DNA of 62,249 nt, counting the filler, from Dirinaria sp. TL-2023a (Eukaryota), in NCBI GenBank assembly GCA_051941275.1. It is 4 parts of 4 records of this genome, joined end to end, with 100 filler letters (N's around TTAATTAATTAA, not from the genome) between each part and the next. Parts side by side here need not be neighbours in the genome. Positions count along the whole stretch, not along the records: positions 46,772 to 62,249 come from JAVEBF010000545.1; 3 more parts are not named here. One strand, 5' to 3'. Numbering within the stretch: the first letter of the stretch is position 1; the number at the start of each line of letters is the position of its first letter. The notes beneath the pieces are model-generated. The model saw nothing but the letters and a program-made list of their open reading frames with translations, was not told where the DNA came from and ran no database searches. This document shows positions 15,513 to 60,282 of this stretch, one piece after another. The translations under genes were made by a program, and so were the position numbers.

Positions 15513-15612
15513 NNNNNNNNNNNNNNNNNNNNNNNNNNNNNNNNNNNNNNNNNNNNTTAATTAATTAANNNNNNNNNNNNNNNNNNNNNNNNNNNNNNNN
15601 NNNNNNNNNNNN
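15513..15612. other. Artificial contig linker N44-TTAATTAATTAA-N44
   Basis: 100-bp N block with a central six-frame stop cassette. Confidence 0.97.
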
Positions 15613-26531: not shown

Positions 26532-27128
26532 ATGCCGTCTCCGGTCCGCATCGCCCAGGTAGTCGGGATTACAACCTCTGCTTACGTAGGAGGTAAACCT
26601 TACCCTATACCGTTCCAAGTTTTCTTACTTCTACCAACCTTCGACTAACCCTCACTTACAACAGGAGCAATCACCTCATTATCATTCCTCGCCATCCCAC
26701 CTCTCTTGCTTGCGCCAGCCCCTCTCGCAGCACGCCAATGGCGACTGTTGTTCGAGCACGGCAGGGTCTCGGCGCCTCCGCTCGCCTTCCTGTCAGCATT
26801 ATCGTTCAGCTATCTGAGCTACAAATTCTACGGCACCCTCAACCACACCAAAGCAGAACTTTACGCGCTCTGCTCGGTTTTAGGAATCGCGGTTATTCCA
26901 TATACCATCGTAATGATGTCAGGCGTCAATGCAAAGCTCAGCAGCAAGGCTGAAAGCGCGGAGGCAGTAGTTCTAGAGATGTCGGCCGAGGTTGCGGCGC
27001 CCAAGGGGGATTCGGTGAATGAACTCTTGGACCTGTGGGCTACTAACAATTTCGCCAGAGGACTTTTTCCTCTAGCAAGTGCCGTACTCGGGCTCTGGAC
27101 AAGCTTGTCATTCAAGGCGGCCCGTTGA
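26532..27128 (+). CDS. DUF1772 / anthrone-oxygenase-like small membrane protein
   Basis: Exon 1 MPSPVRIAQVVGITTSAYVG, an intron, then AIPPLL...ARQW...G, IPYT..M..VN.KL and LLDLWATNNFARGL, a pattern typical of DUF1772. Confidence 0.75.
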
Positions 27129-31092: not shown

Positions 31093-31192
31093 NNNNNNNN
31101 NNNNNNNNNNNNNNNNNNNNNNNNNNNNNNNNNNNNTTAATTAATTAANNNNNNNNNNNNNNNNNNNNNNNNNNNNNNNNNNNNNNNNNNNN
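31093..31192. other. Artificial contig linker N44-TTAATTAATTAA-N44
   Basis: Identical to the linker at 15513. Confidence 0.97.
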
Positions 31193-34200: not shown

Positions 34201-37200
34201 TCGCGAAGACTATTGATGCATGCGACCTCAACGGCAATACCAGTGAGACTGGTAGTAACCTCCTCCTGTGTTCCGCGTGCCGCAAGCATGGCATGTGTTC
34301 CTGCTTGACAGTGTTTTTCCAGCAGCTTGACTCGCTGTCCACAGATCCAGAGGACGTCGAATTCCGAAAGAACGCCTGCGTAATTCAAAGCAGCATACTC
34401 GCCGAGGCTGTGACCGACAACGGCCTTTGGTACGATACCCCAGCTTTCCCATAAACGAGCAAGCGCCATCTGGAGAGATACATGAGCGAGCTGCACCGTC
34501 GTTGGGGACGTTTCGTGAAAGTTGTCCTCAACACCCTGAATGTAAGGTAGGATCGAGTCAAAGCCTTGGCTTTGGATAATCGCATCAAACCGATCGAGGT
34601 CCAACTTAAAGGTGGTATTAGTATTGTAAAGGTATTTACCCATGCCAGCATGATTAGAGCCCTGGCCGGAAAAGGCGAAAACCATTTTTGGTGCACCCCG
34701 AGCTTGTTGCGGTGGGTTAGCGACATCCTGCTTGAGGCTTTGAGTTAGGTCTTCGATCGTCTGAGCCACGTAGGAGCTGCGGAAGTTGTAGTGCACCCGC
34801 CTCGCCGTTGACGTGTAAGCCAGATCAGGGAGGGATACGATCTCGGAAGTCTCAAGGAACTGCACTATCGAGCGAACATTGGCTTCCAGTGCCGTCTGCG
34901 TCTTTGCGGAGATAGTCACCACATGAGCAGGACGGGTATCTGGGCGTGGTATTTTGCTCTCAGTAGCCGGTCGTGGGCCATCTTCAACCAGGACACAGGA
35001 GTTCCCTCCGGCTGCAGAGAAATTGTTGAGAAGGACTCTTCGAGGTTTGCTAGTTCTCGTCCAAGGAGTCGCTTGCCTTGCAATCTTGATACGGCGCTCA
35101 TCTAGATCTGATGGGAAGGTCTGATTGATCTTTGTCTTGATACCACAGTGAGGTGGAATCTCATTCTTTTGCATCATAAGCAGGACCTTGATCAAAGCAG
35201 TCACTCCAGCGACTGATTCTCCATGGCCAACGTTTGCTTTGACAGAGCCTACGTATAAATCATTGGGACGGCCACGTGGGTCACTTGTCGGCCACGGCGC
35301 GAACGACTGTGAGACTGAGGTCATCTCTCGGCCATCTCCCGCCTGCGTACCGGTTCCGTGCATTTCGACGTAGCTGACATCATTTGGATGAACGCCTCCC
35401 TTCGCTAGTACCTCGGAAAAGAGTGCCTGCTGCGCGCCAACATGAGGCCTTGTGATGGATTCGGCCTCCGCAGAGTGATTTGTGACTGCAGAGAGAATGC
35501 AGGCGTGGATAGGATCATTGTCAGCCTGAGCATCTTCCACACGCTTCAGGATCACAATCCCTACGCCTTCTCCCCGGCAATAGCCATCAGCACCGTCGTC
35601 GAAGGTCTTACAGTTTCCAGTCCTGGATAGGAAATGACCGCGGTCAAGACCCGCGGTGACATCAGGATTAGTTAAGACATTTGTGCCTCCCACAATGGCC
35701 GTGTCGATGTCGTGTCTCCAAAGAGCATTACAAGCTAAATGCGTTGCCGCAAGACTTGACGAGCACGCTGTGTCGATGCTAAAACTCGGACCGCTAAATT
35801 TAAAACAATAATTAATACGCCCTGGGATGAACGCACGATTGCCACCCGGTATAAAATAGAAATCAACATCTTGTGCACTATTGGTCTCGCACCAGTCGTT
35901 GCTGGTGGAACCGATAAACACCCCAACGCGGCTTCTCATCGTAGATGGAGTTGCGTCCGGGACAATACCAGCCATCTCCACTGCTTCGTAAGCGCACATC
36001 AGAGCAAGTCTCTGCGCAGGGTCCATTTGAGGAGCTTCGCGAGGTGATATGGCGAAAAAAGAGCGATCAAACAGGCCGGGTTTATTGAGCCAGCAGCCGT
36101 ATGGGGTTGCGCTGGTGTTCTTGCGTTTCAAAGCCGAATCCACATGAGTTTTGACGTCCCATCGAGTTTTGGGCGTCTCGGAATGCGTGTCAACGCCACC
36201 ATGGAGAACATCCCAAAACTCATGAATGTTCTCTGCCTCTGGAAATCTGCCGGAAAAGCCTGTGATGGCGATTTTGGGCTGTCTTGCTTCTTGTGAGGTA
36301 GAGACCCTGGCCATGATTGTTTGGTTGTCCACATAGGTTACAGTATCAATCCCAGAATCGTAATCCTGGATCATAGCTGCGAACCGAGAACCAACAAGCG
36401 TACCGATCGAGACAACTGTGCAAGGCTGAGCAAGCTGAGACTGCAAAATATCCTTGACAGATTGCAGAATGCCGTCTGATGCTATATGTTCTCGCAAGAT
36501 GGACTTCACAGCCACGGTGAGAACCGAATGCAGAGTCTGGGATGGCACAGGCTTTCCATCTCGGTGGGACAGCAAAGTAAGCTTCGATGTCTTGTCCCCA
36601 AGCGATGGGGGAAATGATCGAACAATGCGCTCGACATCGTTATCTGAGTAGATATGTGCTCCATGAAATGGCGCATAAACATCAGATTCAGATGCATTCA
36701 GCTTGTAAGTAGTGGTAAATTCGCTAAGCAAAGCAGGAATTCCACTAAGCATTACGGAATCGCTGGACACGCAGCTCACATACGGCTTTGACCATGTAGG
36801 CAGATTCTGTTTTCGCAATTAGCCTTTCATCACGCATGATTCGAGAGAAAATACAACCTTTTGGTTGCAAAATGCCTCGAGTTGATGCAGCACGGCGTTT
36901 GTCTGGTCAGTCTCAACTCTTACCCGCCATGGTGCGAGGTTCTTCCTGTCCAGAAGAATTTGGTCACGGGTATCAGCGGCAAGCAGTCCGACTCGAAAAC
37001 TAATGAGAATGGTGTCTATGGCCACTGGTAGTAGCTGCTCAGGTGTCGAGCAACAGCTTACGGCGGCCGCTGTAAGCAGACCGGTGCCGAAGCCAAATGT
37101 ACAGCTGACATCTGGAGATCTAGGACTTTCAATTTCGGAGGTTCGTTGGCTGCCTCGAAGTAAGCAGTTGAACGTTTCATATCTCAGTCACCGCGCTCAC

Positions 37201-37487
37201 CACAAGAACAAGGAAAACTGGTGTAGAGAAGATAGAGCCAGTTGCAATGCTGGATGCAGTGGTTCAGAGGCATCGATGGCTAGGAGATCTAGAAAGTTGC
37301 AGAACGAAGGAAATCTATCGCGCTGAGACCATGACAGTGATTGAATTTCTTGACGAAGAGATAAAGCTGCCTGATCGAAGAGCTTATTCAAAACAGGGTT
37401 TCCTCCAATTAATAGCAGCGCTCCCAGATCATCTCTGAACGGGCAAGTCTGGTCACCAAAAAGGTAGAGGGACAGTGGAGGCGACAT
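31240..37487 (-). CDS. Iterative non-reducing polyketide synthase, SAT-KS-AT-PT-ACP-TE
   Basis: N-terminal LYLFGDQT; KS DTACSSS, EMHGTGT and NVGHGES; AT GHSLGE and YAFHS; PT GHRVNG and HPCVFDS; a single ACP LGIDSL; TE GGWSAGG and NHF. Introns near 37150-37201, 36810-36857, 33455-33511 and 33310-33358. Confidence 0.96.
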
Positions 37488-38705
37488 CTTGTGATGGGCC
37501 TGGACAGCGGTGATTAGTTGTACAGAAAAAACCTCTGCAATGATCTCAACTGGTAGATGGGACTGAGCCTCGCCTTATAGCATTACTGACAGGTTCGACT
37601 TGATTGCGAGACGCCGATAAGCTATCCTCCCAGTACCAGCCTAAGTACCAAATATGAGATTCTATAGGAGACAGGATTAGCTCAACGGCATTGTCGCATC
37701 CACAAAGTCTAACAGAAGGATAAGATCACGTCACATTAATGGTTCTCCCCCCGCAGCCTCCCGTGTTCCAGTTCTCTAAGAGCTTCGGTGATCGCCCAGT
37801 TGGAAGAATGAGTTCTTTGATTGGTGGTGCACAATGGTCGGCCCATCCACTCTCGGTAACAGTGCTTGCTGACGCCCAGTGTACACAGATTCAACACGGC
37901 TGATGCAAGCCGCATCATCCCAGCTAGCTCCGGACCTTTTTCTGCAGTGGTCAGATCACGTAAGGTACTTGACAGCGAGCTCATGCGCTCCCCACTTTTA
38001 CATTTTCTCCGATGAGCCAGTCATTGGGTGATCTGCGGGTTCGAGACAAGCAAGACCAGTGCTAGCCGATTCTGTAGACGTTGTACGCTATCTAGATCCA
38101 TTGGTAGAACATATCATAGTGTGAAGATGTGCACGTTCAAGATATCTGGAATGGCAATCATAGCGCGACGTTGCACCAAAGTCGATCACTTTCTATCGGG
38201 TCCTTGCTCGTAGTCTGAGCTAAGACGAGGAATCTTCCTCTAGAGACCCTATCCGAGTTTCACGTGTCATGGTAGTACACAAGTAGGATTAGCTGCACCT
38301 GTGCTAGGAAAATGGATCACCGATGGATTCTATCTTGCTACACGTATAATGCTTTATCTTTTGACCTATTGTTCTCAGGTATATACTCTTCTCGCACCTT
38401 CAAATCACTAAAGAGAAAAGGAAGATACAGACATGGGTAACTGATTGTGTGAAAATGGAAAGTATAACCTAATTAGAGTAAAAGATGAATATGTGAAGAT
38501 GTGGTACATAAAGGATAGGGGTATGCGTATTAAAACAGAGATACCGATGCTATGGTACCTGACATGGCTGAAAAAGAACAAGGCTGACTGACCTTACTTG
38601 GTATAGTGTGCCAGTGTACTACAATGCTTACATGTAGGTAGTGTCCCAGACTATGGGCTTTTCACTACCGGGAAATGTGACGGCCTCGACTGTTTAGCTG
38701 CATAT

Positions 38706-41515: not shown

Positions 41516-41788
41516 GATGGTGTTGCTCCACGCTGTAGTCTGTCTGTTGTGCAAGGAAGACAGAATGAGCTGATCAGTATGCGGATTTGCGGCGCTGCTT
41601 ATCTAGTCCAACCTTGTGAAGGATATGCGAGGATGTGCGAATGCCGTGGAGCAAAGCCGCTCGTAATTGTATTTATGATCTCTCGAAACCACGGCCACAA
41701 GGTCAGTTAATCATTGAATTTGTATCCTCAAATCTTTCTTTCCGTACTCCCACCACTCTCTATCCACTTGTCTTTGTGACTCTGCATC

Positions 41789-43131
41789 ATGGCAACAACC
41801 TCTACAGACCTCGAGACACTCGCGGAGATCTGCCTTCAATCGGCCAAGAACGTCAAGGCTTCCCTCGCCAGCCACGGTTCTGGCAGACTTGGATTCGACG
41901 CGCTAGCAGCCCCTACGTTCCCCAAAACCGACGAGGCAACGGAGAAGGCGAGAAGCGATTTACGGAATGCCGCGCGGACGATGTACGATCTGGCTACGGG
42001 GCCGCAAGAATGTCTGATGGAGTCATCTTTGACCTCGGTGAGCCCAACGAGATATTCCCCCGAGAGATATACGAGACCTATTCTCACAGCGTCCAGCTTC
42101 AATACCTCAACTCCATGAGATATTTGTGCCATTTCAAGGTTCCCGATTTCGTGCCCGAGACGGGAGAGATCGATTACCACTCGCTGGCCAAGCAATGCGC
42201 AGTCGACCCAGCCCAGCTGAAGCAGAACCTGCACTTTGCAATGACCAATCGAATTTTTTGTGAACCCACTCCACAGACTGTTGCCCATACGGCAGCGTCC
42301 CGTTTAGTGAGGGAGGGTAATCCGATGCGGCCGTTCGTGCAATGGCTGACGGAAGACTGTGCACCCATGATTGCTCATCAAATTGATGCCATTGACAAAT
42401 GGGGCCATGGTTCCCAAGAACCGAACCAGACTGCCGTCAATTACGCGTACGGGGGCAATGGCCCATTCTATTCCTTCATCAGCGCGGACCCCGTGCGGGA
42501 ACGACGCTTCGGGACGACGATCCAGCAGGTCTCCCAGCAATCTGCGTCCTCATTTCAACATATTCAGGACGGGTTTGACTGGGCCTGCCTGGGCGAAGGA
42601 ACGGTGATCGACGTCGGCGGCCATGTCGGCTACTGCGCGGTCGCTATCGCGCAAGCAGCGCCCAAGCTGCACCTGATCGTCCAGGATCGACCGGAGGTGG
42701 TGGAAATGGCACAGGACCCCAAGACCACGGTTGTCCCCGCCGATATCCAGAACCGATTTTCCTTCGAGGTTCACGACTTCTTCCAGCAACAGAAGACACC
42801 CGCAGACGCGTATTTCTATCGCAAGACCCTGCTCAACCACACCGACAAATACTGCGCCCAGATCATTGGAGCGCTGTCCCCGGTGTTAAAGCCCGGCAAT
42901 CGGCTCCTGATCATGGACTTCGTGCAGTCGGACGGGACGGTCGATGCGACGACGACAGAGCGGTATTACCGAGCTGTGGACCTGCAAATGCTGCTGTACT
43001 ATAATTGCCGGTACCGATCTCTGGACGAGTGGAAGGAGGTCGTCTCGCAGGGGGATTCGCGGTTGGAGTTTGAGTCGATGTGCACGCCACCTGGAAGCCA
43101 AATGCCTATCATGAGCTTCATTGTTCGCTAA
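41789..43131 (+). CDS. Fungal O-methyltransferase family protein (Methyltransf_2)
   Basis: Exon 1 MATTSTDLETLA...DLATGPQE, intron ~42038-42089, SAM motif VIDVGGHVG, VQDRPEVV, HDFFQQQ, LKPG.RLLIMD and RSLDEW. Confidence 0.88.
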
Positions 43132-44407: not shown

Positions 44408-46014
44408 ATGTCTGACAACAACCCTCCGCCTCAATCGTTTGCTCTGCATTCCCTCCCTGGCTCCGAGAAGTCGGTGCGAGAAACAACCTTCGACGACGAC
44501 GACCGCCAGCTGACCCGCCCCTCTCACGATGTCGAGATGCCCGAACCCCAAAAGCCCGCCGGAAATCCCTGGATGGATCCCAAGGCCTTCCCCGACGGCG
44601 GTGCCACCGCCTGGCTCACCGTCGCTGGCGCCGCCGCATGTCTCTTTGTGTCCTTTGGCTGGATAAATTGCGTCGGCGTCTTCCAGGAGTACTATGGCTC
44701 CCACCAGCTCAAAGAATACACCGCCTCCGAAATCGCGTGGATTCCGTCGCTGCAAAGTAGGCCATCCTTCCTCCCATAGCCATCAGTTGCAGCTCGCTGA
44801 CATCCGGAACAGTCTTCTTCATGTTGTTCGGCGGACCTTTCGTGGGCAAAATATTCGATGACTACGGGCCGCAGTCCCTCCTGGCGGTGGGCGGCTTTAT
44901 GCATGTGTTCGGCTTGATGATGGCTAGCATATCGAAAAAATACTATCAGTTCCTCCTGAGTCAGGCTGTCTGCTCGGCAATCGGTGCCTCGGCGGTCTTT
45001 TACCCCGCCTTTACCTGTGTAAGTTGGAGCCAGATTCCGTCGACGTGTCATTTGCTCACTAGATCTTTCAAGGTATCGACGTGGTTCTTCGCGAAGCGAG
45101 GCGCTGCTCTCGGTCTCGTCGCAGCCGGCTCGTCTTTGGGCGGTGTCATTCTGCCGATTATGGTCATCAAACTGATTCCGGAGGTCGGCTTTGGTTGGGC
45201 CATGCGGATTTGTGCCTTCTTGATTATGGCACTGCTGATTTTTGCAAATCTGACGGTGCGCTCGCGTATTGCACCGACGAAGCGCCCATTTAAACCCATG
45301 GCGTTCATTACACCTCTGGCGGAACCGCCGTTTGCGCTCTTGACAGGCGCCATCTTTTTCTTCTATTGTAAGCCTCCACTTTGACCGACCGACAAGCTTG
45401 AATTAACAATTGCAGGGGGGATGTTTATTCCCTTCACCTTCATCGTTGTCGAGGCGCAATCGCACGGCATGTCTGGTCGACTGGCAAATTACCTCGTTCC
45501 GATCCTCAACGGTGCAAGGTTAGTCACCTCCTATCCCTCCGCCAAATCTAGTATCCTCTTTTCGTGTCCCCAACTAACTATTGACAGTGTGTTCGGTCGA
45601 ACGGTTCCCAACGCCCTCGCGGACAAAGTGGGCCGTTTTAACATGATGATCATCATGTCGACCTTCACCACAATCCTGCTCCTCGCTCTCTGGATCCCAG
45701 CAACAGGGAACGTGCCTCTGATCCTCTTCGCTGCTCTGTTTGGTATCGGATCCGGTGCCGGGATCGGTCTCACGCCCGCTCTCTGCGCGGGAATTTCGCC
45801 AATCAAGGACATCGGAGTGCGGACAGGGACGACCTTCGCCATCTCGTCGATTGCAGCGTTGACCGGCTCTCCGATCGGAGGCAAAATCATCGGTGATAGC
45901 GGGGGCTCGTTCAAATACGCCGTCGTCTTCGCCGGCTGCAACTGCGCTGTTGGCACGCTGCTTTTCCTGGCGGCGAGGATCTCGATTGGTGGACTGAAGC
46001 CGGGGAAGGTTTAA
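44408..46014 (+). CDS. MFS transporter, monocarboxylate-transporter-like, multi-exon
   Basis: Motifs FPDGGATAWLTVAG, FGWINCVGVFQEYY, GKIFDDYGP, STWFFAKRGAALG and ADKVGRFN. Twelve-TM hydrophobic pattern. Confidence 0.92.
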
Positions 46015-46671: not shown

Positions 46672-46771
46672 NNNNNNNNNNNNNNNNNNNNNNNNNNNNN
46701 NNNNNNNNNNNNNNNTTAATTAATTAANNNNNNNNNNNNNNNNNNNNNNNNNNNNNNNNNNNNNNNNNNNN
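46672..46771. other. Artificial contig linker N44-TTAATTAATTAA-N44
   Basis: Identical to the other two linkers. Confidence 0.97.
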
Positions 46772-47464
46772 GTCTGGGGTTTAGAGGTTTGTGCAGGGAA
46801 AGAAAAGGGGGTTAATTGATGTGCGGCTGCACGTATATATATGTAATGATAAGTAAGTAAAATAGGAGGAAAGGAGGTATAGGGACATATAACGTTAAGG
46901 GCAAGAGATATAAACAGCTCGCAGCCAGTATTGTTGCCTTTGCTTTTTCCCTCTTTTTTTTTTTTCCTCTTTTTTCTGTGGCGCTTTCTGCTTTTGAAGC
47001 TAGTGAGATTGAGAGATGGTTTTCTTGCAGGGGATTTCGAGGAACGTGTGCGTGTGGAAAAGCGGAGAAGTACAGGAAAGGAGTTGAGGATGAAGGAGAA
47101 GGGAAGGGAAGAGAAGAGAAATAGTAACTGGGTGATTTTCCGTGATAAAGGAGGGAAATACGTAGGCTGGCTTCGGTTTAGGTTCGTGTTGTGGGTGTGC
47201 ATGGAAAATAGATTGGGCAGATGTAGTTGATGGAGTGCGGACTCGAGGACGGGGGCGGATGGGTGAGGGTAGCTATCACTATTTTTTCTTGTCCGAACAG
47301 GCTTAATTGAGGCAATTGCTATGCTACTAAGGACGATCTAATTGGACTACTTGTGGCTAAGCTGCAGCAAAACCCCCGCCATCTATTCTTCTATCGCATC
47401 ATCTGCTCGGCATTCAGGCAATCCCCTCCAGATCTCGTTGCTCGGGCTCGCTGGCAATGGCACG

Positions 47465-48144
47465 TTACTCCGAGTCGCTAATCGCTTGGATGGTCTGGGC
47501 GGACATTGTCAGCTATCGTTGCTTACGAAGTAGGAGGACCGGAAGTGGAGACTGACCTTGGACTCGCGATTGGCTAGTATGTCACGCTTCTTAGGCTGAG
47601 GTTATTTAGTATGGAATTGTTTAGTAGAGAGGGGATGAAGGTGAAAACCTACCGGTCCATCAACACCTTCGATGCCGTAGAAACGACCAGGCTCAGCTCT
47701 ATCTACATCACGCTTGGTGGGCTGACATTGTCAGCAGAGACTTTCCCAAGAGAGGGAGATGAAGGAAAGAACCCACCGGTCCATCAACACCTTCAATACC
47801 GTAAAAACGACCAGGCTCAGCTCTATCGACATCACGCTTGGTGGGCTGACATTGTCAGCAGAGCATGTCCCAAGAGAGGGAAGACAAAGGAAAGGACCTA
47901 CCGGTGCATCAACACCATCAATCCCGTAAACACGGCCAGGCTCAGCCCTATCGACACCACGCTTCTCAGACTAGGATGGTCAGTAGGGAAGCATACACGA
48001 GAGAGGTGAGAGTAGAGAACTAACGGTATCGCAGAATGGAGCACCGCAAGAGTAGGGGTTCTTATCATCTCCAGCAACCGGGGCAGCGAAGACTCCGGCG
48101 AAGCTAGACCCAAGGGCCAGCACGGAGAGGAGGATGAACTTCAT
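47465..48144 (-). CDS. Secreted KEX2-processed repeat protein (KEP / putative peptide or RiPP precursor), 131 aa, six exons
   Basis: Exons 48144-48025, 47970-47902, 47845-47777, 47721-47653, 47595-47557 and 47494-47465. All introns are phase 0 GT-AG with CTRAC/CTAAA-like branch sites. Spliced protein: MKFILLSVLALGSSFAGVFAAPVAGDDKNPYSCGAPFCDT-SEKRGVDRAEPGRVYGIDGVDAP-PTKRDVDRAEPGRFYGIEGVDGP-PTKRDVDRAEPGRFYGIEGVDGP-PKKRDILANRESK-TIQAISDSE*. Confidence 0.85.
47648..47975. repeat. Tandem repeat of about 124-125 bp (69-bp exon plus intron), three exon copies
   Basis: ACCGGT[C/G]CATCAACACC...CCAGGCTCAGC..TATC.ACA.CACGCTT recurs at ~47651, ~47775 and ~47900. Two copies also share intron sequence (CTGACATTGTCAGCAGAG...CCCAAGAGAGGGA). 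Confidence 0.9.
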
Positions 48145-49299
48145 CTTGAGATTTTGTGTAGTAATGGTTCTAGGTTGTAGGGATTTATCTTTGCAGGAGG
48201 ATTACTTGGGATTCGAAATGGCAGAAGACGGTTCTTGGGTGGATTGAAGGAAGATGGCGAAGAAGATGGAGACGATGAGGGAGAAGAAGAAAGGGAGGAG
48301 GAGATGGAATTTAAAAGAAGAAGAAGAAGATGATGATGATGACGAAAAGCGGTGAAGCGAAAGAAGTGGAAGCGGTTCCAAGTCACCTTGTTTTACTCGG
48401 CCAATGAATCGAACATGTCGTCACCCGCTTCATCCGGCTGGCTCCACTGGCGAGGATACTTGATGGAGGGGGATCGAAAGGAGGGTGGGGATTAGGGCAC
48501 GGGATGTTGAAGATGCCGAGCTGCCGAGCAGAAAGTGTGGAGCACTGGGAGGGCATTGGTCTTTTACAGCGGTGAAGAAGACAAGGGAAACAAGGAAAAT
48601 CAGGGAGGGCAAGTGTCCAGCCTCCACTGCCTGGAGTGAATTAGTGGAGTCTCTTGTCTTGTGCACCCCGATCACTCATTGCAGACTGGAGGCTGTACGA
48701 TTACGCTCGTACCTCTGCTAATTGAGAGAATAGAGCATGTGAAATGGAACTGGGAGGGACAGTGTTGTACACTCTTCATGGTAACTCGACTTCTGATTGC
48801 CTCGGCTCTGTCCACAGCGATCCCGGTAATCGTATTGGTTAACGCCTTTGAACAGAGATCCATAAAGTAAAGTAGCTACCTTACCTACTTTACCTTACAC
48901 ACAAAGGAAGCTTTCAGCAACAGAAGCTCGCTTGCATGCTTGGATGCCAAGAGGTACAGATGAGGAAGTCGGGGGCTGTGGGTAAAGGATTCAGTACCTC
49001 CCATGTAAGGTATGCTTGGTAAGCCAAATAGTGGAAAGTAGTGATGAGACTTTAAGGGTTGGAGAGAGACAATGAGTTAAGTACTGTACGTAGTTAGCAA
49101 AGTGTTGGAGTGTCTCTCATCACTCATCAGACGATTAGCGCAGCGCTCGCTTCGTTAGCGGCCTGTTGTTGATGGTTACTATAAGATCACCCCCGTTTCG
49201 ACCGACTCCCCAAACAACCACAATCTCAGACTCCAAATCGCAACAATATCTCAATCGTCGGCCCAACTTAGAGCATTCAACCGGCATACCAACGCCAAG

Positions 49300-50104
49300 A
49301 TGGACTTGAGCTTTATTTCGTTGGACGAAATCTCTCTCCGAAAAGCCCTCATCGGCTTCGCCATCATGTTCATAACCATCTTCTTCCTATACGGCTTTCT
49401 TTTTTCTCTTTGCCTGGGAATTCTATACATCCGTATGAAGCTCGAACACAAACCCTGGAAGCTGCCCTTTTTTTCCAGTAAGTCTTGCCTTCCTCTCATA
49501 CCTTTTTCGCAGGCTCGGGGAACCTGATCATCGTCAGATGGGACTACCGAATCCCAACTCCTTGACGCGAATAACAACATGCTGGAGCTCGAGAAGTTTG
49601 TCATGGCGAACAAGTGTATGACCAAGCAGGACACCGACTACCTCCACTATCTGGTCCGCGACAAGTGCAGGATCCACCAACACACTGCGTGTGTCAAGTA
49701 CTTCATCGAGAAGCAACGTACCGCGCCGCCGAAATCAGCCCTAGTCACTGCCTCCAGACAGGATGAGCAGGACAATCGTTCTGCTGCGGTAACTTCCATC
49801 GTCTCTGAGTCGAATGCCAATTGCGATCCCGCCGACGAAGTCCGAGCGCTCCGGGCATCGATCAACGAAATGGCGCGCAAAGTGAACACGATTGTCGGTG
49901 CTGAAAACAAATCCACTCAATTTCCTACAGCGGATGGTGAGCATCGTCCGGTCAATCGTGGAGTTCCAACCTAACTTTTCTCTTCAAATAGGCCCCAAGG
50001 ATTTGATAGTCGAGGTCGAAGGTGAAGTCACGGGAAATCCTCTCCCGAAATTCAAACCAGAGGATTTTCCGCTTGTTAAACGCACGCGCGAGCACTCAGC
50101 CTAA
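49300..50104 (+). CDS. Hypothetical protein with N-terminal transmembrane segment, three exons
   Basis: Exon 1 MDLSF...ALIGFAIMFITIFFLYGFLFSLCLGILYI. Intron gtaagt 49478 to cag 49538 joins in frame to the 49579 ORF. A second intron (gtgagc...ctaac...tag) joins to GPKDLIVEVEG...HSA*. No family recognised. Confidence 0.55.
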
Positions 50105-50807
50105 CTTCCATGGGCTCGTCGGAGACCTGCCCGATGGCGAGTAGTTTGGTGGACGCGCAAGTCAGTCACCCTCGGTATCCGCCTACTAAGCTACGTTGCA
50201 CTCAGGGGTACAGGGACCATAAGGCAAAGCAAGGCTGAGCTCTCCTTTCTTCAAGCGATAGTGATCCCGAATTAAGTATGCGAAGCGAACGATTCTTTCT
50301 TTCGATAGGGTAAAGGAATTCAGATATTACCTGAAGTTCAAACTCAGCCACTGGCTTTGTATAATTCGCTTTCCGATGGTTCCTCTCCCCGTGATAAACG
50401 CTCGCACTCTTTTCGGCTCGCGCCTCTTCCCCTAATTGGTTGCCAACCCTTGTAAAGCTTTTTCCAAGCTATTATCATGGGCGCTGACTATCATTCATCG
50501 TTCACTCTCTCCATTTACAAGATCTGCCACTCTTTTATTGCCCAAACCTTCCTGCCTGTCTTAGGCTAGTATTTCGTTCTTCAAATGACACTAACGAGCT
50601 GATTTTGGCGATCAAGACGCAGGAATGAGGCATTTTCTTTCATCTAGCGCCGTCCGAAGTCGGCACGTTAAAAACTGAATTTTACGTATAGACTGACTTT
50701 GCTGGTCTTGAAATGGGAACAGAACAACCGTGATATAAACCTGACAGTGAGAAAATCGAGATAACGTGAGCAAAGGGTAAGAGAGTAAAAGAAAATATTT
50801 ACTGGCA

Positions 50808-51899
50808 TCACCCTCTCGCCGTTTTGCCCTTGTCTGGCTGCTCTCTGTCATCCTTCTGCTTTTTGTCTGAGTGTGAATGTTTTGATTTGTGCTTGTGGTG
50901 CGCGGCTTCGTCTTTCAAGGCTTGCTCGTGCGCCTCTTGCTTCCTGGCCTTTTCTCTCCGCTCTTCGGCTTCGACCATGTCTGTACCGATGCTCGTTAGC
51001 AAGTTTCCCCTTGAAGCTGTGTGAACGGGAATTGATACCTTTCCACTGATCTTCCCCCACATACTCCTCCTTATGCACCTTCTTATCAATCAGATGCTTA
51101 TGCTCGGGATCATTCGGATCGACCACCCGGATTGTCTCATATTTTCCCTCGCCCGATCTCTGATCCCCAATCTCGAACGCCGCCGTTGCAATCAACACCG
51201 CCACTGTCAGCCCCTGCGCATACACACGAGCTTGCACCAGCTTCTGCTGCGTCGATAGGTATGGACTGCGTCCTACGATTCCCAGCGCTACTGCCATAGA
51301 AACGACCCATGACGCGCCCACGATCGGGTACCGGTTTTGTTTTCCCCAGCTCATGAATTTCTCGTAGTTGGTTTTCCTAGCCTCGGCTTCAGCACGGGCT
51401 CGAGAGGTCTCGTCCCGATACCCTTCATCTGGGTGGCGAGAAGCTTCGAAAGAGCGGGAAAAGTGGTCCGCAGAGACAATTGCTAGGAATTGGGATAGTG
51501 TAAGCCAGAGCTCGCCACGTGTCTCCTATCAATCAAGTCCGAGTCATATATGACTCCGCTAGGAGAGATCCCTCGCCAGATATTCAACTGCAGCAGAACA
51601 GAAATTGCACAGATCCTTGAAAATTGCGAATCAATGGGTCGATGACTGACATACCGCAAAAAGTGCTAGCCGAAGTGAGTAGAAATGCCCGTAAGGGTAC
51701 CGTCAACTGCCGGAAGGCGGGATAGCGAACGGTGGCCCCATAGACACCTACAGCTCCCAGTGCGAGGCCTACAACGCCGCCGCCTATGCCACCTTTCAGC
51801 GTAGCACTGTGCCCAGTCAGTGATAGGGTAGCTGCAGTGACGGGTGGGATGGGAGCACTTGTAGTGGGCTTGTTCCTCCTCCTTCGTTAGGATCTTCAT
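50808..51899 (-). CDS. RCF2: HIG1-domain mitochondrial respiratory supercomplex factor (Rcf2-like)
   Basis: Motifs MKILTKEEEQAHY, NRYPIVGASWVVSM and QKLVQARVYAQGLTVAVL. Multi-exon. Confidence 0.85.
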
Positions 51900-52367
51900 G
51901 GCGGGCGACTAGAATGCTGATGTTAGATTGTTACTCGTGCGATTGGCATGAGAAGGTGAGTATTTCTCAATGGCTGGCAAGAGTGAGTCAAGGAACAGTT
52001 ATTGAAGTTCATCGACCAGTGATGCTGGTGAGGAGGCGGGCAAACTCGCCGGCTTGGCGGCATTCTGAGGAACGAGCAGTGACGTAGCGTCAGATCCAAA
52101 AGCTGGTAGAGAATAATTGGTGACAGGACTACTACTACCATTTCCTTAATGTATAAATACTAAGGTACTTCACAAGTGTCTTGGTTTTAGTTGAGAAAAG
52201 CTTCATACGCTCATTTTCATCTCTATGTTTTGTGGCGTCACACTCGTCTAGGCAATTGCAGTAATATCGTCCTGTGACCATTGCCCCGCGAATTCTCAGC
52301 CTGAGTCCTTGCACTGAACCAACATCGAAATACAAGGGTGGCATATATCCATCGATACAGAAAGCCT

Positions 52368-54449
52368 TCACGATTTCTTCTTGCCTTTCAACTTGTCTTG
52401 CACCTCTATCCAATGTCGATCGACTCCTCGCTTCCCCAACGCTCTAACTACAGCATCCTTCTGCGGCCCTTGAACCAGGATCTCCTGCACAGGATTCTTA
52501 GGACTGCTGCCCACCAGCTGGTTGACGCTTGTTGAGCTAGCGCAGGCTCTCTGCAGCTCTTCAGCTAGCGGCTGAGGATTGACATGAAAGACTTCGACAC
52601 CAAAGAGTCTTGTCATCGTCTTATTTCCGGAACGAGTCTCCAGGATAATGTTGATCTTGGGGGAATGTCCTGCCTTGGCTTTGACTGCGTCGCGTGTCTC
52701 ATCGTTGCGCAGTAGAGCCCAGAACGGTGAGCAGCTCTGGGTGATGCGCTCGATAAGAGCGTCTCTTGGCACGGTTCCTTTTGCCAGTACCTCTCGATCA
52801 AGAGAGTTTGAACCATCAAAGACGGCATTGGCAAGCACTGGGTCAATCTTGACCAGGCGCTTGTTGGTGTCAGAGACCAGGTCCTCGGAGTCAATGTACG
52901 CTATGATGGCAGTTCGTAGCTCTGTGGGCAAATAAAGGTTTCTTACATCCGCCAGCGACGCTTCGAAAATAGGCGCTAGCTGCGATTTTGGCCGGTAGAG
53001 ATTAAGGAGCTTTAGTCGTTGCCCTACTGAGCTGTCGTTCGGCGAAGAGCCAGCCACAATCGCCTTGCCGCCTCCACCTCCGCCACTATCTGCTCCTGGA
53101 GTGTCCTTCTTCGGCAGCTTGTAGGGGACAAAGTTGATCACCTGGGTATCGTCGAAATCAATGTCTAAGATAACACATTCTCCGCCATCGCGGTCCTTTG
53201 ACTTCACAATCTTTGCTTTGTCGAGAGCTTTAATGAATTTCTTCACATTCTTCCAGCTTGTCTTCTTAACCTGCAAGGAGGATGCTTGCCCTGGCGTTGT
53301 AATAGGCAGGTACGGTAGGACGAAATTTGATATGACTAAAGATTGATGGATTGGGAAGCTGACGCCGTGATTGGGATCACTCCTGTTTGTGTTTCGGTGG
53401 TGTTGCACGGCATACAGAAAGGCTTTCCAAAAGATGTCGTCAATCTCTGCAGGGTCGTTAGATTTATAAATAACGCAAGAACTCCATCCTTGATCTAACC
53501 TTGCGCAGTTAGGGTTTTCTCGATCACCTCTATTTTCTCGTACGGCTCGCCGCCCTCGCCTTCGACATCTTTATTATGAGGCTCATAGGAAGTTTTTTCC
53601 TCGATCGCATCGCCTACAGGCACGCCTCCTGGCGGGTCTTCTTCGTCGTCGTCTTCGACAGACAAATGCTTAACCCCCGAGCTGACAGTTGTTGCCTCAT
53701 CATTGACGTCCCAGCCATTGATCTCCTCAGGTGCAGCAGTACCACCAATTCCCGACTGACTCCACACCCAGATCTCATCACCTTCCCAATGCTGGCCACG
53801 AACGGCATGACCTTTTGCGCCCTGAACTTGCTGCAGCGAAGAAATGTCAATCTCGCAAGTGCCCACCCACTTGGGCACGCTAGGCTTTTGCACACTCGCA
53901 ACAGCCACTACTGCGCCTTTCTTCGCCTTCGAGGGAAATGGAGGGCCACGCGTAAGGCCCGGAGTCATTAGATCTGCACCACCTTGTAATTTGGGCAAGA
54001 CGATGTCTTGCGTATAAAGTAAAGGTACCAACTGTGGGTTTTTCCACAGCGTGTATACCGTCGGAATGAGCTGATCGCCGACGCTAAGCCACAGAACCCT
54101 CTGCTCGGCTCCTGGATGGGCGCCTACGTATACTGTACCTGAGACCTGTTTGAGGTCCGGCCCAGCAGTTGTGGTGAAGCGAGCGGACTGTGTTCCTTCT
54201 GGCAGAAGCGAGTTTCGAACGGCGCCTAGACCCACGGCTCCAGCAGCTTGTTCGCCTTCATTGTTGCTGTCTTTTACTTGCGCGTCATCATTGTTCGGAA
54301 TCTCAACGTTGAAATTGGAAATGATCTGGTCAGCTATCTTCCTTCTGTCCGAAGACCGTAAGGGTGATAGGGGCTTGATCTGGTTGTTCTTAGTATTGCT
54401 GAATATCTAGACCAGAGCATTCACGAACAGTGGGCTTCTTCTTGAACAT
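52368..54449 (-). CDS. TMA64: Translation factor eIF2D / Tma64 (PUA, SWIB, SUI1 domains)
   Basis: MFKKKPT/IKPLSPLRSSDRRK, PTVYTLW, GADLMTPG, VKKTSWKNVKKFIK, and a C-terminal SUI1-like ETRSGNKTMT...CASSTSV...VQGPQ. Confidence 0.9.
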
Positions 54450-55124
54450 TTTCACAAGTGGAGCTTTCCAAGAATGTAGAAAAAGGAAACCTTGAAGGAG
54501 ACGAAAAGTGGCACAATAGACGAGCTTTCAATGAGAAGGAGAAGGATTGAGAACTGGAGCAGCGACAAACAGTAGGACAGGAAAAGGCGGGGCCCAGTAA
54601 TTTGCGGAGCTCCGCAAAGACCTGAAGGGCTGGAGAAGGGAACGCTTGTTGTTGGACTACCTTAGTACCGTGTTTCGCGACGATAGTTTTTCAAGGTTGA
54701 TGTACCCACAATACCTGATGAACAGTACTCTGGCATATCACAGTAATGAAGGTACCTTACCTTAGTTGATGGCGAGTGACGTAGTAAGGTAACGTAAGAT
54801 TACCTTAGTTTCAGGCTGGTGTACGTGAGGTGTGCGCGGAAATCCGTCACTGGGAAATCTGTCACCGGGTTTTGAACGATCGGCTATACTTTCCTTCCCC
54901 ATGAGTCGAAAACTCTCCGCCAGCACTCTGATTGACCCGAAGACTGACTCTAGACTGGTTGGCCACACCAACAGTCCTGCGTCACGCGGTTTTTGAATGC
55001 TTAGCGTCCTTTGGTACATGTATACTGTCAATCCACTATGGCCGCAACTCTTTCTCCTCAGCGCTCCTCCACCAAGGAGACCCGTCCATCCACCAATCCT
55101 CGTCATCCTACAGCTCCGTCCATA

Positions 55125-57866
55125 ATGACCGTCAACGGCCATTTCGCCAATGTCGGCGAGAAGCCAACGAAAGAGCAATACGAGCATGGTATACAGGTCA
55201 TCAATGAGGATCAGGAATTCAAGTACGCCCCCGCCCGCCCTCAGCATGGCCAATCCTAATATGCATCAACAGTCCCAACCTACCAAATTACCTCTCGTTC
55301 GAGAAAGTCGCTTCGGCCGGCTTCAATTACCACCTGATATCCGTCTTCGGCTCCCAATCGACCGGCAAATCTACTCTCCTCAACCACCTTTTCGGCACCG
55401 AATTCGGAGTCATGTCCGAGGCCGACAGAAAACAGACCACAAAAGGAATATGGATGTCAAACAACAAGCGGGGCGGAGTTGACGGAGTGGCAAAGCAAAT
55501 GGCGGACAACATATTAGTGATGGATGTCGAGGGTACAGATGGCCGCGAAAGAGGGGAAGATCAGGACTTCGAACGGAAAAGTGCGCTCTTTGCGCTGGCC
55601 ACAAGCGAAGTCTTGATTGTCAATATCTGGGAGCATCAGGTCGGTCTGTATCAGGGCGCAAATATGGGCCTACTCAAAGTCGTCTTCGAGGTTAACCTGG
55701 AGCTGTTTCTGAAAGGCAACAAGTACGCTGGATCATGCAGACCGACGTATATACGCTGACACACCCAGGAACAACCCACGCTCACTGCTCTTCTTCGTCA
55801 TTCGGGATCACCTGGGCACTACACCCTTAGCTAACCTCCGCAACACCCTCATACAAGATCTCCAACGCATATGGTCGGGTTTATCCAAACCCCAAGGCAT
55901 GGAAAAATCGAAGCTGGATGACTATTTCGATATGGCTTTTGTTGCGCTACCCCACAAGATACTGCAGCCAGAAAAGTTTGTCTCCGAAGTTTCCAGGCTC
56001 GGTACGAGGTTCAGGGAAGGGCATCGAGAGTCTAGAAAAGAGGCTCTGCTTGACGACCAGGAGATGGGCCGTGGTATTTTCTTGCCTGAGTACCATCGTC
56101 GTATCCCTGCAGATGGCTTTTCGATATACGCCGAGAATGTCTGGAACCAAATAGTGAACAACAAAGACCTCGATCTACCTACTCAGCAGGAGCTCATGGC
56201 TCAATTCCGGTGTGATGAAATATCTCGTGAGGTGCTCGTAGCCTTTGATGAGGTTATTACACCTTTCGAGAACAAGCAAAACGAAGGCGTACGGTTAGGA
56301 ACACCCGAGGTCCTCGGTGGGCTTGGCTCAGCTATGCGTTCCGCCAGGATGAAGGCGATCAAAAATTTCGAGGTCGAAGCGAGCAGGTACCATAAAGGAG
56401 TATACACTCGGAAGAGAGGTGAGCTTGAGAGTAAGATAGACGGGCGCTTGAAGATTCTGTTCCAAGGTCAACTTTCCGCAGCAAGTAAGGCCGGTGTGCG
56501 GGATTTCAGCGAAGCGGTGAGCACTGCTGTCAAAGCCGGGCAAAAGAAAGGCGCCAGCTACGACTTTGCGCAGATTGTGGATCAGGAGAAGAAGAATGCT
56601 ATATCGAAGTATGACAAAGACGCCCGGGGCGTATTAGTGGAAGGTGCGCCGTGGAGTAATTACAAGCAAGAGATGGCTCTCTTTCAGAAAGACCTAAACG
56701 AGGTGAGCGGACGCCTGAGAAGAGACGAAATGCGAAGACTGGCGACGCGGGTAGAGAGGTGGGTGCGATCACGTCTTGGTGAATCTATCGGACTTGAATT
56801 CAATGCACTGGGCTCTGGTCGGGGCGGGTCAGGAGATTCTGGCCATGACGATAAATCTCCCGAGAAAGGCATTTGGGACCGGATATGGAGGGTTTTCACG
56901 AAGACCGTAGAAGAAGCGGAGCGAAGATTTACCGATCGTGCCAAGAGCTTTGATGCCAGCCCAGGCGAAGTTGATGTTGGGCTCTGGCGACTGCGACGGA
57001 AGTCATGGGGTGTGTTGCGAGCCAAGGTTGACGAAGAGATGATGGAAGGCAACTTGCTCCTGAAGCTTCGAGAAAACTTTGAAGACAAGTTCAGGTACGA
57101 TGAAGCTGGTGTTCCCCGGATATGGCGCCCCACGGACGACATTGAGGGCATCTACACCAAAGCACGCGAATCAACCCTCACACTCATTCCTCTTCTATCG
57201 CGGTTTCAGTCAAGCCATACGAGCGATCCACCGCCGCTGGATGATTGGATTGGGCATGCGCCGGAGTCTATGACTGCAGCAGACGAGGAGGACCTCGCGC
57301 CCATTGGGGGTGTTGATGAGGACGAGGGCAAGAGCTTAGAGGAGGAAATGACAATATTAACGGATGCAAAGAGGCAAGACATCACAACGCGCTTCAAGAA
57401 GACTGCGGATGGCGTCTACGTGGAAGCGAAACGAAGTGCGATTGGAGGAATGACGCAAGTACCATTGTATTTCTACGGGCTGTTACTAGTACTTGGGTGG
57501 AATGAGCTTGTAGCTGGTAAGTCGCCCACATTTGCCTGCACCGAGAAATTCTTTTCTTTATCGGCGCCTGATGCTAAAAGTGCCGCAGTACTTCGAAACC
57601 CTCTGTACTTCGTCTTTCTACTTGCATTGGCTGGCGGCGCTTGGGTCACGCACTCCCTCAACCTGTGGGGCCCGATGCTGCAAATGGCCAATGCGGCTTC
57701 CGCGCAGGCGTTGGAGGAAGGAAAAAAGCGGCTCCGAGAATTCCTAGAGGCTTCGGACACAGGCCGACAAGCCATTGCTATGTCGGGTCGTGAAGACATT
57801 GTCATGCAGAAGCTCAACGGGCACGGCAAAAGGGCTTCAGTAGAAGAGGAGGACGAGGAAATATGA
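55125..57866 (+). CDS. SEY1: Dynamin-like ER fusion GTPase Sey1 (RHD3/atlastin)
   Basis: Motifs [31 protein letters not shown] and [26 protein letters not shown], plus a C-terminal TM hairpin ([14 protein letters not shown]). An alternative in-frame ATG lies at 55038. Confidence 0.96.
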
Positions 57867-58524
57867 TACGTGGCCCTCTAAAAAATGATCTTTGCATTGG
57901 ATAGAAGCTCAAAACTGCCTCGCCACAGATGGATCATCTTCAACAGCCCTTTGTGGTTTTGCTTTCCTGACCTGGGCTATTTTGTCCTTCACATTCGTGT
58001 CCCAAGAAAGTGATACCTCCCAAGAAAGTGGTACAGCTCTCATACTATTGTCGAATCCAGAATCCTCCGCACACGGGCTCACAGAGAATGTTGTGTGTTA
58101 TGTGTAAAGTAAGCTCCCTGGGGATTTCTCCGACATCTAATGCAGAGGCATTGCTGCATTTTCGGTCTTAGGGCTCTGCTAGGGTAGCAAATCGCAAGGG
58201 TTGGCCCGGCCGCAGGGAAGTTTTACCTCGGCACACGCTCGTGAAGGATTCAGCTTTGCGGCTGTGGTCAGCTTCTCCAGTTTAGCAACCAATCTTTGCA
58301 AGATGTGTGTCAGGTAACGAGTTCAGTTTGCTGCCTATCTTATGGCAGCATCTGTCTTGACTTTCTTCCTCTTCAATTTTCATTTCCGTTAAGATCCGGC
58401 GTTGATCAATTGACACCGGGCCTCAGTTTTACCGTATCATCAATTCTTCATACCTCTCGTTCATTACTTTTTATACTTTCGCTGAACGAGTAAATAGCAA
58501 TATAGCTGCCTTCTGGATATCTTA

Positions 58525-59658
58525 ATGGCCTTCGGTCTCGATATGGAGAGCCTCCGTGCTCTACTTGGCTACTTTGGTAGCGTCAACTACTGGAAAGTGC
58601 TCGCTGTCATCTTCGCCATTTTCAATCTCAAGAACCTCCCATTCGCGTGGCATGTAAGTCGCCTTGTGCTCACCCGCTCAGTTGTGGAACATCGCTCATC
58701 GATAGTCTAGCTCCGCGTTCTCAATGCCTTCATTACCCATCTCTACCATACCCGCTCCTCGATCCCGCCCCCCTCGTCTCCATCCCGACTATTCCAGCCT
58801 ATGATCATCAAAACACGCGTCACCAGCATGGACTGTGACTGGAATCTACACAAATCGAACAGCACCTACTTTGGTGACCTGGACATTGCGCGCGCTCATC
58901 TTGTGGCGCATATCTGCCGACGTGGAATGGTAAAAATACGAGAAGAGCTCAAAGCCGATAAGGGAGGGCTTGGGTTGGGACTCGGAGGCGTGCACTGCAG
59001 TTTTCGGAGGGAGATCAAACCATTCGAGCGTTTCGAGATTTGGACGAGGGTATTGGCTTGGGATCGGAAATGGTTGTACGTCGTAAGCCATCTGGTGAAG
59101 GAGGGCAAGGTAAAGCCGAAAGCGTACTCTCTGCAGCCTTGGAGGAAGGTTAAGGGGACACGAAGCGACAAGAAGGAAGAGGGCAGCGCCAGTGTCCAGG
59201 CGAATGGCAACAGCGAGGCACCAGCACAACCTCACCCCGCCATCTTCGCCTCCGCAATAGGGAAGTACGTCTTCAAGAAGGGCCGCCTTACTATCGCTCC
59301 CTCCCGCATACTGGAGGCATCAGGATACCTACCGCCTAAACCGGCCGACGTGCCTACTCCGGCAGCCACACCATCGCCCATGCCTGAAGGAGCTACCAAC
59401 ATCCCCGACTCAACGTCGCAAGAGCCCGCCCTAGCAGCGGCAGTCGAGGCTCTGTCGTCGAAGAAGGCTGATGGGATAGTAAATGGCTCGTTGTCTGCGA
59501 AGACGAGAACGGACGGAGTGTGGGATTGGTATAGAGTCGAGGATGAGAGAATCAGGGGTATGAGGCTTGCAGAAATGTTCAGCGGACTTGATGGGCTGAG
59601 CGGCGAGTTCCGCGGTGAGGACGATGATGCCTTGGGTATGTTCAGGGATCTATTCTAA
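58525..59658 (+). CDS. Hot-dog-fold thioesterase-like protein (THEM6/YBR096W-like)
   Basis: NLKNLPFAWH, an intron, then DCDWNLHKSNSTYFGDLDIAR, FRREIKPF and TRVLAWDRKWLY. Confidence 0.8.
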
Positions 59659-60282
59659 AGTGTGGGACGGAATGCATGATAGATGCAGTAGATAGAGTGG
59701 TCCTTACCGCTTGAGCGTCGACAGCCTGTTGTTTACGGAACACTGCATAAATCATCAAAGGTCAAGTATTTGTTTGCTCTTCTCGTACTCGTACCTACAT
59801 CCGCTGAACATCCGCCCAATGAACCGAGTAATGGTAGATGCATCCCACGAATCCTTCGACGTCACCCGACGCATGATTCAAGTAAGGTAAGGTCAGTCGT
59901 GCTGGCATCCTGCAGGAACCCTTTGCAGAGCTTACCAATCCCATGCAAGATCCCAACGCAAGATGGCGCATCCAACCGGATTAATTCCCCGTCGAAGGAC
60001 GCGCGAATGTAGAAGCTCTTCCCCGCACCGTTGTGCACTGGATCATGGGAACCGTCTCTGCTCCGTCTCTGCTAAATACCTTAAACCCTGCTTGACTGCA
60101 CATGTTGACGTACCAGCTGAGCTTAACAAGCCTCTACTCTTATTGCTTTTTGGGGTACCACTAAAGTATAAAGTATAAGAGATGGCTGGCCCCTCTCATA
60201 ATACCGCTTTCACGGCGGCGCAGTGTACCAGCTTCGAGACACAAGGCTTCGAGGCAAAGATTCGTGAGCGCGAAGTCGAGCG

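Follow-up and report, generated by a model that had tools for sequence, protein, structure and literature searches.

A putative Kex2-processed repeat protein with one repeat peptide per exon in the lichen-forming ascomycete Dirinaria sp. TL-2023a

Introduction

The question raised by the locus described here is whether a short stretch of the minus strand, which no single open reading frame (ORF) reveals, encodes a secreted precursor that is cut into repeated peptides and, if so, to which class of fungal precursor it belongs. The locus occupies positions 48144..47465 of a window of 62249 bases, by which we mean the whole stretch of DNA that was analysed, from Dirinaria sp. TL-2023a, a lichen-forming ascomycete whose genus is placed in the Caliciaceae (Lecanoromycetes). 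A preliminary description had proposed a hidden gene for a protein in which a signal peptide is followed by near-identical peptides bounded by Lys-Arg (KR) dipeptides, the layout of repeat proteins processed by Kex2 (KEPs), and had also raised the possibility of a new system of peptides made on the ribosome and modified after translation (RiPPs). We find that the KEP reading is supported, and hold with moderate confidence that the product is a KEP that most likely yields linear or minimally modified secreted peptides.

The functions of the peptides derived from KEPs have been called 'largely unknown' (PMC9769878). They are among the least understood molecules that fungi secrete, and few have been examined in lichen-forming species. 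In a kingdom-wide survey of KEPs, Umbilicaria alone was present among the six lichen genera looked up, with 3-4 KEPs per assembly (PMC7329392).

Results

Judged from its sequence, 48144..47465 is a genuine gene, and one that belongs to the nuclear genome of a lichen-forming ascomycete. It opens with an ATG at 48144, closes with a stop codon that ends at 47465, and is divided by five introns into six exons that splice to a coding sequence of 396 nt, or 131 amino acids (aa) and a TAA stop. Exon 1 (48025..48144; 120 nt) supplies the start codon, a hydrophobic segment that resembles a signal peptide (residues 1-20) and the N-terminal pro-region, where C33 and C38 lie; it is followed, after intron 1 (47971..48024; 54 nt; GTTAGT...CTGAC...TAG), by three exons of 69 nt, all phase 0-0. 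Exon 2 (47902..47970) carries the first KR and 19 residues of peptide 1; exon 3 (47777..47845) the two residues that complete peptide 1, then a KR and the 19 that open peptide 2; and exon 4 (47653..47721) likewise the two that complete peptide 2, then a KR and 19 from peptide 3. They are followed, respectively, by intron 2 (47846..47901; 56 nt; GTAGGT...CTGAC...CAG), intron 3 (47722..47776; 55 nt; GTGGGT...CTGAC...CAG) and intron 4 (47596..47652; 57 nt; GTAGGT...CTAAA...CAG). Exon 5 (47557..47595; 39 nt) completes peptide 3, carries the fourth KR (as KKR) and begins the non-repeat C-terminal tail, a region that looks like a degenerate fourth repeat unit; beyond intron 5 (47495..47556; 62 nt; GTCAGT...CTGAC...CAG), exon 6 (47465..47494; 30 nt) finishes the tail and ends in the TAA stop.

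All five introns are therefore of the GT..AG type with YAG acceptors, and a short motif, CTGAC in four of them and CTAAA in the other, lies 8-13 nt before the acceptor. Reading through the introns meets stops, including an in-frame stop when either intron 1 or intron 4 is retained, and no stop-to-stop ORF covers the gene, which appears only as fragments of 73, 79, 48 and 42 aa. The six-exon model of the preliminary description holds up, with exact coordinates, GT-AG introns and one open frame; its view of the gene as hidden is correct with respect to the stop-to-stop ORFs, but not with respect to the databases, where NCBI already has an identical 131-aa hypothetical protein. When compared by eye, the spliced product is the same letter for letter as KAL8825764.1 ('MAG: hypothetical protein Q9191_004210 [Dirinaria sp. 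TL-2023a]'; hereafter P0001), which means that an annotation pipeline arrived at the same gene model. Candidate frame-joining introns in the conserved Sey1, eIF2D, carboxylesterase and KDEL receptor genes are 46-55 nt in length and have CTGAC or CTAAC near the 3' end, and comparison with these candidates suggests that the introns of the KEP gene resemble those of the genome at large. Upstream, at 90-200 nt from the start codon, there is a CT-rich tract with short CTT and CAT repeats (48230-48345, minus strand). Pyrimidine tracts are common in the promoters of well-expressed genes of filamentous fungi.

The protein carries a Lys as its second residue, then a hydrophobic stretch, and has a small-residue site near residue 20. 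Its signal peptide was assessed by hydropathy and by eye; the mean Kyte-Doolittle value is 2.15 for residues 3-20 compared with -0.96 for residues 21-131. KR sites occur at residues 43-44, 66-67, 89-90 and 112-113, that is, 23 residues apart, and between them are three 21-mers that differ from one another at 0-5 positions, the second and third being unlike in the last residue only. Including the cleavage site, the full repeat unit of 23 aa is DVDRAEPGRFYGIEGVDGPPTKR. Both the signal peptide (to the extent that hydropathy and inspection can establish it) and the four KR sites delimiting three near-identical 21-mers are as they had been proposed, the latter exactly as first written. Five acidic residues and two Arg are found in each repeat peptide, which is Cys-free and has a high content of Gly and Pro, and Tyr-Gly-Ile is present in all three units; such a composition would set these peptides apart from the cationic or amphipathic lytic kind.

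Before the first KR there is a pro-piece of 22 residues that begins Ala-Pro-Val-Ala and includes Cys33 and Cys38 (C-x4-C), and after the last KR a C-terminal tail of 18 residues. The pro-piece (residues 21-44; 48025-48084, minus strand) opens with two dipeptides of the STE13 type, Ala-Pro and Val-Ala, right after the likely signal cleavage site, and it may represent either a first unit that has degenerated or one more released peptide, the fourth. AlphaFold2, given the single sequence, returned no confident fold for P0001 (mean predicted local distance difference test score, pLDDT, 48.7; predicted template modelling score, pTM, 0.13), which is weakly consistent with a disordered precursor.

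Two published definitions of a KEP can be compared with these features. Le Marquer et al. (2019) look for at least four KR fragments of which at least three are similar, with repeats making up at least 15% of the length (PMC6339444), in a protein with a signal peptide and no further transmembrane segment, while Umemura (2020) looks for three or more tandem repeats, each of 8 aa or more and none exceeding 100 aa, that lie between Kex2 sites (PMC7329392). In-silico cleavage of P0001 at KR and RR gives five fragments, three of which are the similar 21-mers; the repeats account for 63-69 of its 131 residues (48-53%); its hydropathy, judged by hand, indicates an N-terminal signal peptide and no further transmembrane segment; and it has three tandem repeats between Kex2 sites. 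P0001 passes both definitions, and the KEP architecture of the preliminary description stands. Its 21-aa unit also falls within the commonest length class in Dikarya, 9-24 aa (PMC6339444). Like the prototype of the class, the yeast alpha-factor precursor, and like the surveyed KEPs, P0001 combines a signal segment with tandem, KR-bounded, near-identical peptides in a compact repeat block that takes up about half of the protein. It differs from the surveyed KEPs in having no relative in the searchable catalogues, three units and no STE13 dipeptides after KR. The surveys record 1193 KEPs in 226 species (PMC6339444) and 7878 KEPs in 1345 of 1461 strains, 2560 of the 7878 being stand-alone proteins without a homologue (PMC7329392), so that an orphan KEP is an ordinary and common case.

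The organisation of the repeats is modular at the level of DNA. Tandem Repeats Finder describes an exon-plus-intron array at 47626..47964 with a period of 124, 2.7 copies, 88% matches and a score of 515, and a self-BLAST gives 88.9% over 216 bp. Each repeat unit is on its own 69-nt phase 0-0 exon, and the 124-bp period is that of exon and intron together; we envisage that the array would have grown by tandem duplication of this 124-bp module. Since the repeat exons have 69 nt each and are phase 0-0 without exception, the gain, loss or skipping of a module preserves the frame, and because they start two codons before the KR, each peptide is completed by the following exon. For the arrangement seen in P0001, one unit per 69-nt exon with an intron between units, the main texts of PMC6339444 and PMC7329392 offer no counterpart under the word 'intron', which occurs in neither, and a literature search for KEPs that place one repeat on each exon found no use of the phrase 'separate exon' in the 10 papers listed of 46.

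A comparison of exons 3 and 4 shows four differences in 69 sites, all of them synonymous (proportion of differing synonymous sites, pS, 0.235; of nonsynonymous sites, pN, 0); the probability that all four would be so by chance is 0.0037. The introns are less alike than these two exons, introns 2 and 3 being identical at 48 of 56 positions and introns 3 and 4 at 38 of 57. Exon 2, which is older, gives pN/pS values of ~0.56 and ~0.33 against exons 3 and 4 respectively. The pattern is that of a peptide frame kept by purifying selection, as far as the few sites behind it can indicate.

P0001 forms a singleton cluster in the protein collection. A word-index search with one repeat ORF ('longer' lengths) retained one of nine candidates, and the 'near' search one of 472, which in both cases was P0001 itself. 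Among 1,835,955,588 representatives, phmmer (E <=0.001) matched five proteins: P0001, P0002 (E 2.6e-07) and three long repeat proteins (P0003-P0005; 1107-3311 aa), the last of which were rejected as unrelated proteins matching periodically by chance. P0002 is a hypothetical protein of 211 aa from Rhypophila decipiens; it is itself a KEP, and the only KEP-like match to P0001 that phmmer provided. A profile built from P0001 and P0002 recovered 3 of 8000 scored candidates, namely P0001 and two Rhypophila proteins, of which one was new and belongs to Rhypophila sp. In a scan of JGI metagenome contigs, none of 575 pattern-matching stretches was confirmed by tblastn. Scanned against Pfam with E up to 10, P0001 showed one match below threshold, to EF-G_D2, and no family, and the best score in the ESM Atlas was 0.88, for unnamed ascomycete clusters, which is below the level counted as more than a lead. 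Short repeat motifs had 0 occurrences in the supplements of both KEP surveys, where the header part of the large table shows accessions and no sequence column, which gives this negative little weight. With no named relative in the phmmer, word-index, profile or Pfam searches, the repeat is, as had been suggested, unlike that of any characterised precursor.

The Rhypophila KEPs (P0002, P0006 and P0007; KAM7216616.1 and KAK4213080.1) merit closer comparison. BLASTP gives 31% identity with P0001 over 121 residues. Common to both are a mature protein starting Ala-Ala-Pro-Val and units that have an aromatic or aliphatic residue, a Tyr, a hydrophobic residue two places further on and an end of the form Gly-Pro-Pro-x-Lys-Arg; the Rhypophila proteins differ in having a core of the Leu-Tyr-Ser-Leu-Thr type, 6-7 units and a sordariomycete source, far from the Lecanoromycetes. 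The whole mature proteins of P0001 and P0002 align with a score of 117, while shuffling residues between KR sites (n=1000) yields scores that average 32.3 and do not exceed 59, and when a real P0002 unit was permuted and repeated five times, the observed score was reached by 0, 3 and 0 of 1000 permutations. Comparing single unit with single unit, 392, 97 and 93 of 5000 permutations reach the observed score, a marginal likeness, which implies that the E-value of P0002 is mostly a weak unit match multiplied by repetition. On these alignments, common descent of P0001 and the Rhypophila KEP is possible. In the Rhypophila KEP, it is the first repeat with which the Cys-x4-Cys pair of the pro-piece aligns.

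The window does not represent a continuous stretch of chromosome; it consists of four pieces, each of ~15.5 kb, joined by artificial linkers at 15513-15612, 31093-31192 and 46672-46771, each made up of 44 N, TTAATTAATTAA and another 44 N. Since different pieces are joined by linkers only, linkage between the genes of separate pieces is not shown. The KEP gene is in the fourth piece (46772-62249; 15478 bp), which is a complete contig, the protein record likewise placing the gene product on a single contig of 15478 bp. From the stop codon to the contig end there are 693 bp (46772..47464), in which no ORF has a Pfam match; the contig stops there, so the downstream flank is unseen, and what can be inspected is one side only, comprising 14.1 kb and six genes.

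The nearest of these genes is divergent and encodes a membrane protein (~49301-49971, plus strand) that has no match in Pfam or the Atlas; ~1.15 kb separates its start codon from that of the KEP gene. It has a hydrophobic N-terminal region and a probable 60-nt intron near 49479-49538. An HxxHC motif was not seen in it by eye, and an Atlas search with its large exon gave no usable match. Pfam identifies the other five as HIG1 (50851-51525, minus strand, overlapped by one sub-threshold MarC match), eIF2D (52371-54406, minus strand), Sey1/RHD3 (55208-57863, plus strand), a 4HBT thioesterase-like protein (58711-59655, plus strand) and a carboxylesterase (60563 to the contig end, plus strand). The visible flank is thus mostly made up of housekeeping genes. 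The contig has 144 stop-to-stop ORFs of 55 aa or more; we compared all of them with Pfam (E up to 0.01), and none matched DUF3328/UstYa, a tyrosinase or a methyltransferase, one flank only being visible. The window's three other contigs, which are unlinked to this one, have 94 ORFs of 110 aa or more, and none of these matched DUF3328 or a tyrosinase either. The preliminary description had suggested that DUF3328/UstYa genes be sought nearby, and on the visible side the contig has none; the possible new RiPP system that it proposed consequently finds no support on the one flank that can be seen.

Discussion

In proposing how P0001 might be processed, we follow the alpha-factor/KEP pathway as it is described in PMC6339444. 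The prepro-protein would enter the endoplasmic reticulum and be cut by signal peptidase near residue 20; the Golgi kexin Kex2 would then cut after each KR and Kex1 would trim the Lys and Arg residues, so that three acidic, Gly/Pro-rich, Cys-free peptides of ~19-21 residues would leave the cell by exocytosis. An N-terminal pro-peptide of 18-22 residues with the C-x4-C pair and the 18-residue tail would also be released, and if Kex1 acts on basic residues at the C terminus as it does in alpha-factor, the Lys that ends the third peptide would be removed. Linear peptides are favoured because there is no DUF3328 or tyrosinase gene on the contig; in agaricomycetes, mass spectrometry has revealed KEP peptides both linear and minimally modified (PMC9769878). 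A role in signalling or in interaction with the lichen partner would be more plausible for such peptides than a lytic one. On this reading, P0001 would add a sequence-orphan, one-exon-per-peptide member to a known and very diverse class.

Several considerations weigh against this interpretation. The cleavage of P0001 by Kex2 is argued from analogy, and its splice junctions from sequence signals together with ab initio agreement. Most described KEPs have at least four repeats and three was chosen as a minimum to limit false positives (PMC6339444); P0001 has three, the lowest count that KEP pipelines accept. The synonymous-only pattern depends on just four sites, and since no orthologue was found by the phmmer, word-index, profile and metagenome searches, cross-species conservation gives no support. 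Half of the gene neighbourhood is also unseen, and a modifying enzyme may be located there.

This last point bears on the alternative that P0001 is a dikaritin-type RiPP precursor, in which, around or after the time of Kex2 processing, a DUF3328/UstYa oxidase, with or without a tyrosinase, would form the kind of cross-link known from ustiloxins and phomopsins, between the Tyr of Tyr-Gly-Ile and the side chain of its Ile. The Tyr-Gly-Ile units would then be the cores of a dikaritin-like cyclic peptide, and the enzyme genes would lie just past the contig end, 693 bp from the stop codon, or unlinked elsewhere in the genome. We consider this rather unlikely. P0001 resembles the dikaritin precursors UstA, PhomA and AprA in being of KEP type with a Tyr-x-Ile triplet in every repeat, which is the one positive point that the protein itself offers; cores such as YVIG, YAIG and YVIP are cyclised between Tyr and Ile, 30.1% of Ascomycota KEPs have a DUF3328 gene within 15 genes, and Tyr is found in 65.6% of the repeats of KEPs with such a neighbour compared with 38.2% of others (PMC7329392). 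A study of 111 genomes of lichen fungi, moreover, reports that UstY-like genes are widespread and that no precursors were found (PMC12048977). Yet P0001 differs from UstA, PhomA and AprA in its longer unit (23 aa), its far fewer copies (just three), a core that does not adjoin the KR, and the absence of a visible DUF3328/UstYa or tyrosinase gene, either on its own contig or on the unlinked ones. DUF3328 genes peak immediately adjacent to the KEP gene and are on average 3.09 genes away (PMC7329392), whereas the adjoining gene and the next five encode the membrane protein, HIG1, eIF2D, Sey1, the 4HBT protein and the carboxylesterase. Our rough estimate for a RiPP started from 30%, was raised for the Tyr and lowered for the six genes on the visible side that are not DUF3328, and so ended well down in the range of the unlikely. 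If the dikaritin-like reading were true, the UstY-type genes of lichen fungi would gain their first candidate precursor here, in a modular gene with one exon per core, and the number of core copies could change through duplication of modules or skipping of exons.

P0001 might, alternatively, be secreted and left uncut, as a protein of the cell wall or thallus matrix or as a whole effector, its KR dipeptides being incidental. The three-repeat minimum and the analogical basis of cleavage, both mentioned above, are in favour of this, as is the case of MiSSP8 from Laccaria bicolor, which has kexin-site repeats and matters for hyphal aggregation without proof of cleavage in vivo in the preprint that describes it (bioRxiv 10.1101/218131). 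We nevertheless think it distinctly unlikely, for a KR occurs at the same place in the three full units, before the first unit and in the degenerate fourth, which is the layout of a precursor, and P0001 has no predicted fold, no glycosylphosphatidylinositol or wall-anchor feature and no Pfam family. It is very improbable that the locus is non-functional, whether as a recent tandem duplication whose splicing to an open frame is fortuitous or as a gene model without expression. Its sequence is that of an orphan and both supports for the gene model are computational, but such a locus would have to combine, by coincidence, five introns with consensus signals, a start codon, a segment resembling a signal peptide, a stop codon and repeat exons whose divergence is synonymous only. 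There is, finally, only a slight chance that P0001 is an alpha-type sex pheromone precursor, which would be a special case of a KEP with linear products. Precursors of alpha-pheromones share its architecture, a cluster with the MF_alpha Pfam families ranked fourth in the feature search of the Atlas, with a score (0.83) too low to count as more than a lead, and pheromone sequences vary strongly between ascomycete classes (PMC6339444). The two types of pheromone in classes of Pezizomycotina have either a conserved Cys pair (with Trp) or a PYGxPxG motif (PMC6339444), and the repeats of P0001 have no Cys pair, Trp or PYGxPxG, their Tyr-Gly-Ile-Glu-Gly not fitting the motif. Furthermore, each KR is followed by Gly-Val or Asp-Val and none by an STE13 dipeptide (X-Ala or X-Pro), 21 residues is at the long end of the range, and neither MF_alpha nor MF_alpha_N was matched in the Pfam scan of P0001.

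If P0001 is, as we favour, a KEP with linear products, its interest lies in its source and its structure. Stand-alone KEPs being as common as they are, the find itself is ordinary; what it adds is a repeat sequence without clear relatives, from the mycobiont of a lichen, in the form of an easily synthesised 21-mer that is a candidate signal between the partners of the symbiosis. MiSSP8 provides a loose precedent for a role in partner interaction, since it comes from an ectomycorrhizal fungus and is, like P0001, a small secreted protein of a mutualist with a repeated motif that includes a kexin site; the two are unrelated in sequence and phylum, and MiSSP8 is backed by expression, knock-down and in vitro Kex2 data, whereas P0001 is known from its sequence alone (bioRxiv 10.1101/218131). 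The layout of one exon per peptide also provides a tidy example of how KEP precursors can grow.

Other features of the window

The second piece includes, among housekeeping genes such as those for eRF1 and the KDEL receptor, an ORF of the anthrone-oxygenase family, a flavin amine oxidase and an aldo/keto reductase (26649-27125, plus strand; 15733-16569, minus strand; and 29863-30456, plus strand). On the third piece there is a non-reducing polyketide synthase whose SAT, KS, AT, PS-DH, ACP and TE domains are distributed over several ORFs, with an O-methyltransferase and a major facilitator superfamily transporter nearby; these genes are at 31243-37574 (minus strand), 41620-43128 (plus strand) and 44761-46011 (plus strand). 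The third piece is therefore likely to hold an aromatic polyketide cluster of the lichen fungus.

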